A stretch of 64,000 bases of DNA from contig CAZFNI010000003.1 of assembly GCA_964520655.1 (NCBI GenBank), positions 6,220 through 70,219 of the forward strand, given 5' to 3'. The position numbers and the translations under genes were made by a program. The notes beneath the pieces were generated by a model, which was not told the DNA's origin, ran no database searches, and worked only from the letters and a program-made list of their open reading frames with translations. Each line of letters opens with the position of its first letter. The first letter of the stretch is position 1. Shown piece after piece: positions 40,373 to 41,275 of the stretch. The stretch is from an uncultured Planctomycetales bacterium. Its GTDB lineage: Bacteria > Omnitrophota > Gorgyraeia > Zapsychrales > Fredricksoniimonadaceae.

Positions 40373-41275
40373 ATGAGCAAATATATCCCTTCGCGTCAGC
40401 AGGATGAGAATCAGCGTAAATTTTTGACCGGTATCCCGATCGACCCCTCTCCCAGGATCTATCTGGAAAAAGGATCGACGGAAATGACCATGCGCGCCAT
40501 GGACCTGATATGCCCCATCGGTATGGGGCAGCGTGGATTGATCGTGGCCCCGCCGGGATGCGGGAAGACAACATTCTTAAAACATTTGTGCAGGTCGGTC
40601 GCGGCGGGATATCCCGATATCAAACTGCATTGTCTGCTCATTGATGAGCGTCCGGAAGAGGTTACGGATTTCAAGCGTTCGGTGCCTGCCGACGTGCGCA
40701 GTTCATCGTCGGACATGAGCTACGAGCATCATTTACAGACCGCGGATGCCTTAATGGCGGATGTGTTCAAAGAGACCGCTGACGGCGGCAATGTCATGGT
40801 GGTCATTGATTCCCTGACCCGCCTGGCGCGCGTGCATAATGCCCAGCAGTCTTCGCGCGGCGGCAAAACATTGTCCGGTGGTGTTGACAGCCGGGCCATG
40901 GAAGTGCCGCGTCGCATTTTCGGCTACGCGCGCAAGATCGAAGGGGCGGGTTCATTGACCATCCTGGCAACGATCTTGATCGAGACCGGCAGCCGTATGG
41001 ATGAAGTGATCTTTGAAGAATTCAAAGGAACCGGCAACATGGAAGTTGTCCTGTCCCGCGATATTGCCAGCCACCGCATTTTCCCGGCGATCGATATCGC
41101 CAAGAGCTCGACGCGCAAACAGGAACTGCTGATCCCCAAAGAGCAATTACCTCGGGTGGACGCCTTAAGAAGGTCGCTGGTGACGTTAAATAAAGTGGAA
41201 GCGGCTAAATCCCTTTTAGACCTGATGACAGCGCATCGGGACAATGATACTTTATTGAATAAATTGGATATTTAA
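40373..41275 (+). CDS. Rho-family hexameric RNA helicase/ATPase paralog lacking the N-terminal primary RNA-binding (OB/CSD) domain
   Basis: Aligns to E. coli Rho from about residue 125 to the end: '[20 protein letters not shown]' (Walker A), '[10 protein letters not shown]', 'DSLTRLAR', '[44 protein letters not shown]'; no N-terminal domain in this or adjacent frames. Confidence 0.75.
   Translation: [300 protein letters not shown]

Follow-up and report, generated by a model that had tools for sequence, protein, structure and literature searches.

In the window (the whole 64-kb stretch of DNA analysed here), we identified through Pfam, NCBIfam, tblastn and AlphaFold a gene at 40373..41275 of the forward strand, whose open reading frame of 300 aa begins with ATG and encodes the C-terminal RecA-type ATPase/translocase domain of the transcription termination factor Rho together with its connector segment; we refer to the gene as short rho and to its product as short Rho. 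An ORF for a 75-aa protein that has a single hydrophobic segment and 5 Cys lies 11 nt upstream (40134..40361, forward strand), in keeping with the Cys-rich membrane protein that the preliminary description had placed there; it matched no family in Pfam or NCBIfam and had no counterpart in the related loci examined. Downstream, and also on the forward strand, are genes for an NnrS-family membrane protein (41277..42464; Pfam PF05940, 322 bits), the iron exporter MbfA, a rubrerythrin-VIT1 fusion (42483..43436; NF045676, 490 bits, cutoff 450), a SAM-dependent methyltransferase resembling the RlmI/RlmK-type 23S rRNA methyltransferases (43440..44393), a Uup-type ABC-F ATPase (47956..49851; NF050005, 816 bits, and Pfam), and a 66-aa cold-shock-domain protein of the CspE/CspA class (53351..53551; NCBIfam CspE class, 109 bits). 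The preliminary description had named the two genes that directly follow short rho correctly; the ATGA overlap by which it coupled short rho to NnrS is not there, the junction reading TAA-G-ATG with a 1-nt gap. Genes around short rho are separated by gaps of 1-18 nt with no convincing terminator between them, and a consensus scan returned a sigma-70-like promoter match, TTGCCA-17-TAGGAT (40035..40063, forward strand), within the 127-nt gap preceding the 75-aa ORF. Transcription of the closely spaced genes between 40134 and 44393 may start at this match, in a region where sigma-70-like matches are no more numerous than expected from shuffled sequence.

Gene order in the window is collinear with that in L001, the closest relative to lie on a long contig (82% identity), and both have the order cupredoxin-FTR1-FUR-ZnuABC-photolyase-GluSyn-short rho-MbfA-methyltransferase, followed further on by Uup and then by the CspE-class gene, which is 100% identical between the two (tblastn). 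They differ at several points: a U32 peptidase is found in the window only and is absent from L001, L001 carries Sod_Cu at the position of the 75-aa ORF, and a block of inserted pilin-like and subtilase genes, which has pushed Uup 6.7 kb away in the window, sits where L001 has a Na+/H+ exchanger. NnrS between short rho and mbfA is likewise confined to the window, being absent from L001 and the other 86 loci, and on this comparison of gene orders it is a lineage-specific insertion.

To define the protein itself, we compared it with profiles, sequences and structures of Rho. The NCBIfam Rho model NF006886 was matched at 355.6 bits (cutoff 315), with residues 9-297 of short Rho covering profile positions 125-412 of 413, and TIGR00767 at 332.6 bits, under its cutoff of 509.45; canonical Omnitrophota Rho scored ~695 on both. 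Solved Rho structures were matched at E values of 1e-74 to 3e-78 over E. coli Rho residues 131-412, and in a tblastn search with E. coli Rho (a sequence that agrees with the PDB alignments) positions 40406-41257 corresponded to residues 125-413 at 46% identity, so that a 300-aa product aligning to Rho from about residue 125 had been described accurately. The sole Pfam domain of short Rho was PF00006 (ATP-synt_ab, nucleotide-binding); neither the Rho_N helical bundle (PF07498) nor the OB-fold primary RNA-binding domain Rho_RNA_bind (PF07497) was matched by Pfam. The N-terminal domain (NTD) of E. coli Rho, used as a tblastn query against the whole window, found nothing (best E 1.5), and a stop codon 7 codons 5' of the ATG closes the reading frame, which bears out the earlier statements that the NTD is missing and is encoded upstream in no frame. 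An AlphaFold monomer model resting on a 58-sequence alignment had a mean pLDDT of 93.4 and a pTM of 0.91, with lower confidence only at the N-terminus (~10 residues) and around the Q-loop; its best 50 PDB fold matches were all Rho chains (TM ~0.90, rmsd ~1.5 Å over ~285 residues). We conclude that short Rho comprises the entire C-terminal ATPase domain (CTD) of Rho and lacks the N-terminal RNA-binding domain. The RecA-type hexameric ATPase fold and PF00006 are shared with FliI/SctN (T3SS) and the F1/V1 catalytic subunits, and a grouping with the latter had been named as an outcome that would overturn the assignment to Rho. Against the profiles of these proteins short Rho reached at most 90 bits (cutoffs 380-750), compared with 356 bits to Rho, and its best PDB sequence matches after Rho were at E ~1e-17; together with the fold matches, these scores rule out an F1/V1/FliI affiliation. 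To our knowledge, the Rho-specific context of the Q- and R-loops is not to be expected in FliI/SctN or F1/V1 subunits. A search with the PADLOC models for anti-phage defence gave only a 25-bit match of the P-loop region to mad8, and neither a phage or plasmid origin nor a leader RNA element was supported by comparison with a phage collection and Rfam.

Next, we examined residue conservation by aligning 125 members of the short family (E. coli numbering). K184, T185, E211, R212, D265, R269, R366 and G287/G288 were invariant, and the window protein has the Walker A Lys/Thr, the catalytic Glu211, Arg212, Asp265, Arg269 and Arg366. The Walker A/B and DSLTRLAR motifs are thus present as reported. 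Of the two loops assigned to the peptide [38 protein letters not shown], the R-loop is indeed there, and the Q-loop lies earlier, in [14 protein letters not shown]. In the Q-loop, K283 is K in the window protein and R or K across the family, T286 is replaced by S, and G287/G288 are retained; in the R-loop, K326 is replaced by R, the same residue as in Thermus Rho, and T323/S325 are retained. The alignment to the Rho family that the preliminary description had called for therefore gave the expected picture of an absent NTD and intact secondary-site loops across the 125 relatives. Judged from these aligned residues, all catalytic and RNA-translocation residues of Rho are present in short Rho. 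Of the 292 CTD positions compared, 90 are invariant-like with one and the same residue in short and canonical Rho, and fixed differences between the two forms are found at only 10, e.g., T231S/F232S, by which the canonical STFDEP motif reads SSSD, A192C and A273V. In addition, the P-loop residue K181, a position in the bicyclomycin pocket, is Gly in 123 of the 125 members. The connector segment, which is predicted by AlphaFold to be ordered, is among the best-conserved parts of the short family (89% mean column identity), whereas that of canonical Rho is not conserved (PMC5449661). Ahead of the connector, family members carry tails of 5-72 aa, rich in R/P/S/N/H, whose net charge has a median of +2. 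A conserved basic tail as a substitute for the NTD is a weak candidate, as tail lengths vary and the tail of the window protein is only 14 aa long and without net positive charge, which argues against a conserved replacement RNA-binding element.

Short Rho belongs to a broad family. Among the matches listed there were at least 120 homologue clusters (67-98% identity; 290-358 aa, median 310), all consisting of the ATPase domain alone, and wherever an organism label was given it was Candidatus Omnitrophota or Omnitrophica. The Omnitrophota carrying short Rho are uncultured. The short gene is carried by, e.g., the assemblies GCA_964572155.1, GCA_015233675.1, GCA_044225175.1, GCA_964583975.1 and UOWG01 and by the large contigs JACCDT011306633.1 (1.02 Mb) and Ga0074198_1000004 (0.90 Mb). 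A further search with the family-specific N-terminal segment matched 247 JGI metagenome loci. Complete ORFs were found in 77 of 87 related loci (median length 310 aa), and no Rho NTD was encoded within 10 kb of short rho across the 87. The upstream frameshift that had been named as a possible refutation was therefore checked and not found: the upstream stop, the lack of an NTD in any frame and the 77 complete ORFs rule out a frameshift or a hidden NTD. The longer ORFs in L117, L143, L148 and L165 were upstream start-codon artefacts or had R/G/P-rich tails. Neighbour-joining analysis of the ATPase domain recovered the short family as monophyletic, with P0123, likewise OB-less, as its sister. 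Members of the family are ~50% identical to every canonical Rho, those of Omnitrophota included, in comparison to 57-61%, and up to 76%, among canonical CTDs across phyla; upon clustering at 50% the family shrank to about four representatives, and in that set no full-length Rho was nearer to it than 55%. The family is thus conserved and under selection, and its tree and identities fit an old, functionally diverged paralogous lineage, as opposed to a recent truncation.

We also looked for canonical Rho in the same phylum. A scan of GTDB genomes, dominated by the universal motif MDEVIFEE, revealed three Omnitrophota-labelled MAGs (L019, L082 and L083) that encode Rho in full length, complete with Rho_N, an OB fold bearing the DGFGFLR motif, and the ATPase domain, and two separate lists each contained at least 120 canonical Omnitrophota Rho clusters of 78-100% identity. 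Canonical rho is also carried by the 1.55-Mb contig that encodes UCB57194.1. In seven loci the context of canonical rho was polA-(glgA)-coaE-rho-rpmE-prfA-prmC-murA. Among the loci examined, short rho was never found at the coaE-rho-rpmE-prfA-prmC-murA locus, neither Uup nor CspE stood beside canonical rho, and neither coaE nor prfA stood beside short rho. This difference in gene context rules out an in-place truncation of the housekeeping rho, and it is plausible that short Rho is a paralog of canonical Rho, because Omnitrophota-labelled MAGs carry the latter at a separate housekeeping locus. A peat metagenome series contains both genes. In tetranucleotide composition, L179 reached a correlation of at most 0.80 to the short-rho loci (within one genome: 0.93-0.95). 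No recorded protein corresponds to the window protein itself. At the level of records, as distinct from whole assemblies, the GenBank accession blocks of short and canonical Rho did not overlap; similarly, at the level of the JGI hits compared, the canonical matches came from metagenomes and not from Ga0206xxx/Ga0207xxx scaffolds, which by their naming alone we take to be genome bins. GC content is 37-41% in the canonical-rho loci nearest to L082, lower than in most short-rho loci (median 46%), which hints that the two genes reside in partly different lineages. From prior expectation and the breadth of both families, we nevertheless think it quite probable that short and canonical Rho co-exist in one genome.

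We then surveyed the neighbourhood of short rho in the 87 loci, which left 10 lineages with usable flank after collapsing at 80% identity. NnrS adjoined short rho in 1 of the 87 loci, the window itself, and hence in one of the 10 lineages, so the check for conserved NnrS neighbours in related genomes, for which the preliminary description had asked, found no second case. MbfA did so in three loci of a single subclade (the window, L001 and L090), again one lineage of the 10. Most members of the family lie in other, unrelated surroundings, e.g., with kdp, two-component systems or Uup/CspE. Of the 48 loci with sufficient flank, 24 had Uup within 10 kb of short rho; in most of these it lay immediately downstream in the same orientation, and the CspE-class gene came after it. 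By lineage, Uup was near short rho in 5 of 10, being not nearby in the other half, and CspE and the RlmI-like methyltransferase in 3 of 10 each; from these counts, the only recurrent neighbour theme is that of RNA- and ribosome-associated genes, although the conserved Uup/CspE/RlmI-like order may be inherited synteny without functional meaning. A secreted-looking protein of ~350 aa is encoded directly upstream of short rho in 38 loci of one clade; as it is restricted to that well-sampled clade, it is ruled out as a universal partner.

Compared with canonical Rho (TIGR00767/NF006886; E. coli Rho, PDB 1PV4, 3ICE, 5JJI), short Rho has the whole CTD in common: the RecA fold, P-loop Lys/Thr, Glu211, Arg valve, Walker B, Arg finger, Q- and R-loops and the connector segment, at 44-46% identity, TM 0.90 and an rmsd of ~1.5 Å. 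It lacks residues 1 to ~120 (the Rho_N bundle and the OB-fold Rut site) and, unlike canonical Rho, carries K181G in the P-loop and SSSD for STFDEP, has a highly conserved connector and does not lie at the coaE-rho-rpmE-prfA locus. Group B/Type 4 Rho, as described by Moreira et al. 2024 (PMC11347177) for, e.g., the PVC group and Actinomycetota, are likewise second, shorter paralogues with conserved ATPase residues; they have lost Rho_N and kept the RNA-binding OB domain, whereas short Rho is without both. The NCBIfam model NF041509 ('Rho, short form', 360 aa) was matched by the window protein at 289.3 bits against a cutoff of 628, from profile position 73 on, with the 72-residue N-terminal region absent. 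Short Rho falls within the definition of the 'Rho-like' class of the same survey (one Rho domain only), in which such sequences were counted in 421 of 2730 species and set aside as non-functional (Moreira et al. 2024, PMC11347177); single-domain sequences had therefore already been counted, with no family, context or function described for them in the main text, which makes no mention of Omnitrophota, and we found no paper on Rho in Omnitrophota. Six further proteins, P0123 (labelled Candidatus Sericytochromatia), P0124, P0125, P0126, P0146 and P0154, resemble short Rho in that they have a Rho CTD and no Rho_RNA_bind domain was detected in them. Their identity to the short family, and among themselves, is only 44-56%, and they differ in their N-terminal regions, some of which are long R/G/P-rich tails, and in their unrelated gene contexts. 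P0125 is on contigs of 4.4-4.9 Mb.

The anatomy and distribution of short Rho are solid at the level of sequence comparison, and its function is what we infer from them. To the reading that short Rho acts as a Rut-independent hexameric RNA translocase beside canonical Rho we give an even chance. In canonical Rho, the CTD is responsible for hexamer cohesion, ATPase activity and translocation driven by the secondary binding site, and the NTD for Rut recognition (PMC12360218); RNA at the secondary site alone closes the ring on U-rich RNA, and occupancy of the primary sites assists closure on poor RNAs (PMC5449661). Together with the intact motor, this published work suggests that the CTD of short Rho would hold a hexamer together, hydrolyse ATP and offer the Q-/R-loop secondary RNA site, that the protein would assemble into a ring binding single-stranded RNA through its central channel only, and that this ring would translocate 5'->3' along RNA driven by ATP. 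As short Rho lacks the primary, Rut-recognising site, its choice of substrate would differ from that of canonical Rho and depend on RNA accessibility or on a partner: the ring may by itself close onto pyrimidine-rich RNA that is accessible, or onto RNA ends, or, alternatively, a partner may help to load it. The recurrent neighbours Uup, CspE and the RlmI-like methyltransferase would fit a role in RNA or ribosome-associated remodelling or surveillance, beside a housekeeping canonical Rho. In older biochemistry of E. coli Rho, the isolated CTD is poorly active without the NTD, so that a Rho consisting of the motor alone may require a partner. Also weighing against this reading are Gly at K181 of the P-loop and the SSSD motif, changes that may bear on activity. 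The OB domain of Rho has a cold-shock-like fold, and Rho-dependent termination in E. coli is modulated by CspA. A bolder version, which we regard as quite improbable, is a split Rho without primary sites, in which the motor ring would obtain its RNA from a separate OB-fold protein, the CspE-like one so often encoded a little downstream, or act with Uup on ribosome-associated RNA; if true, a machine derived from Rho would be remodelling RNA apart from transcription termination, a natural experiment with a Rho motor without Rut recognition.

Two other readings keep short Rho within transcription termination. As a regulatory subunit, it would enter mixed hexamers with canonical Rho that have fewer primary sites in the crown, so that termination is tuned or dampened, e.g., under stress. 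Canonical Rho exists in the phylum, the CTD that carries hexamer cohesion (PMC12360218) is intact and shares its 90 identical positions with the canonical form, hetero-hexamers have been raised for other shortened Rho paralogues by Moreira et al. (PMC11347177), and in the window subclade the gene sits in a stress-type cluster of FUR, Znu, SOD and MbfA. We consider this reading rather unlikely, as the short and canonical CTDs are only ~50% identical, below the value for canonical Rhos of different phyla, which argues against a co-evolving shared interface, and the two genes were never linked in the loci examined. Alternatively, short Rho could be the only Rho of its lineages and terminate transcription without a Rut-binding crown. 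Such a replacement would agree with the naming of the short proteins as Rho by the NCBI pipeline, with the conservation of every motor residue, with the difference in GC content, and with the finding that, in the lists compared (lists as opposed to whole assemblies), both genes occurred together in no assembly. Yet canonical Rho is widespread and highly conserved in Omnitrophota, the same peat series has both gene types, and the short CTD is unusually divergent for an unchanged job, all of which makes a replacement terminator distinctly unlikely.

The preliminary description had instead proposed a specialised ATPase tied to NnrS and the Er-VIT1 protein MbfA in NO or iron stress. The tight packing of the window genes and the rho-MbfA adjacency that recurs in L001 and L090 speak for such a link, but NnrS adjoins in a single locus, as an insertion relative to the collinear L001, MbfA adjoins in one subclade only, and most family members lie in unrelated contexts. 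The proposal is accordingly very improbable: the NnrS/MbfA neighbourhood is a local accident of gene order that gives no functional clue, and at most the setting couples expression to a metal/oxidative-stress cluster in one lineage. The chance that the gene is an artefact or is decaying, i.e., a truncated or frameshifted rho or one with a mis-called start, is vanishingly small; its shorter length, and nothing more, would suggest this, whereas the frame is closed 7 codons upstream, NTD coding is absent from every frame of the window, and the architecture is shared, with strong conservation, by the 77 complete ORFs from independent assemblies.

Rho mechanism is usually described in terms of two sites, in which a crown of primary sites picks Rut RNA and the motor then closes. 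A large, conserved natural family that has the motor and is without the crown offers a test of what the motor does alone, and it raises the questions of how such a ring is loaded, whether Rho-derived motors are employed in jobs other than termination, and whether some of them are modulators of termination. Furthermore, surveys of the presence or absence of Rho in uncultured phyla can be misled by short Rho, since members of its family score above the cutoff of one NCBI Rho model and carry the name 'transcription termination factor Rho'.

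Comparison of the short Rho proteins with one another (alignment A1) revealed that residues 16-52, the equivalent of the connector between the N-terminal (NTD) and C-terminal (CTD) domains of Rho, are among the most conserved parts of the family; the NTD-CTD connector is not conserved in canonical Rho (PMC5449661). We predict that this segment is ordered in short Rho despite the absence of the NTD. Two substitutions were seen family-wide: the first P-loop Lys is replaced by Gly (G62 of the window protein; K181 of E. coli Rho, a residue of the bicyclomycin pocket), and SSSD at residues 111-114 replaces the conserved STFDEP motif.

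Outside the short-Rho family, the OB domain was likewise undetectable in further Rho-type ATPases (database proteins P0123, P0124, P0125, P0126, P0146 and P0154), and a gene for an ATPase of this type is found at 6001-6987 of locus L175. P0124 carries an R/G/P-rich tail of ~180 aa, and P0125 is encoded by a stand-alone gene on long-read contigs of 4.4-4.9 Mb. P0123 (MEZ0371657.1), the sister of the short-Rho family in our neighbor-joining tree, comes from a contig just 4.2 kb long and is labeled Candidatus Sericytochromatia, a group inside Cyanobacteriota, a phylum in which Rho has been reported to be missing. The N-terminus of database protein P0127 (400 aa) corresponds to the interior of a Rho CTD (MVLLDSITRMARAYN...), after which the protein matches Rho a second time; it is probably a chimera created by assembly or gene calling. 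Locus L010 (CAYNGE010000208.1) is a 2.4-kb contig, from a MAG labeled Planctomycetales, bearing a short-family gene of 68% identity; this label likely reflects mis-binning, failing which the short-Rho family would extend past Omnitrophota.

At 38 loci, the gene immediately 5' of short rho encodes an uncharacterized protein of ~350 aa (for example, L093 755-1852, L005 8206-9261 and L008 9001-10011), and its end abuts or overlaps the start of short rho. The protein has a signal peptide-like N-terminus, gave no match in a Pfam search and is restricted to one short-Rho clade; kdpABC-kdpDE often lies 5' of its gene. We also observed a conserved gene pair in Omnitrophota, in which a Uup-type ABC-F ATPase gene is followed, at a spacing of about 150-250 nt, by a CspE-like gene of 66 aa. 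The pair is present in the window (47956-49851 and 53351-53551), L005, L007, L008, L095, L106, L114, L123, L125 and others, with 92-100% identity among the CspE-like proteins of these loci. At L140, Uup is absent and the CspE gene lies 195 nt 3' of short rho; at L169, it lies 409 nt 5' of short rho.

Downstream of short rho in the window, a strong hairpin (43473-43493; 8 bp, 7 of them G-C, then CTTTTT) is located 37 nt past the mbfA stop, but inside the methyltransferase ORF, at its conserved 5' end. The hairpin may serve as a terminator or attenuator that overlaps coding sequence, or the match may be due to chance. Relative to L001, the closest relative on a long contig, the window carries an insertion at 44303-47661, between the methyltransferase and Uup genes. 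It contains three small ORFs whose N-termini resemble those of prepilins, one of these ORFs having a weak PilX_N match, and a gene for an S8 subtilase whose C-terminal repeats are fn3-like. Upstream of short rho, a metal-homeostasis cluster encoding a cupredoxin, FTR1 iron permease, FUR and ZnuA/ZnuC/ZnuB (30877-35738) has the same gene order in L001. Combined with MbfA and, in the case of L001, Sod_Cu, this cluster constitutes a metal and oxidative-stress neighborhood that is found only in the subclade of the window.
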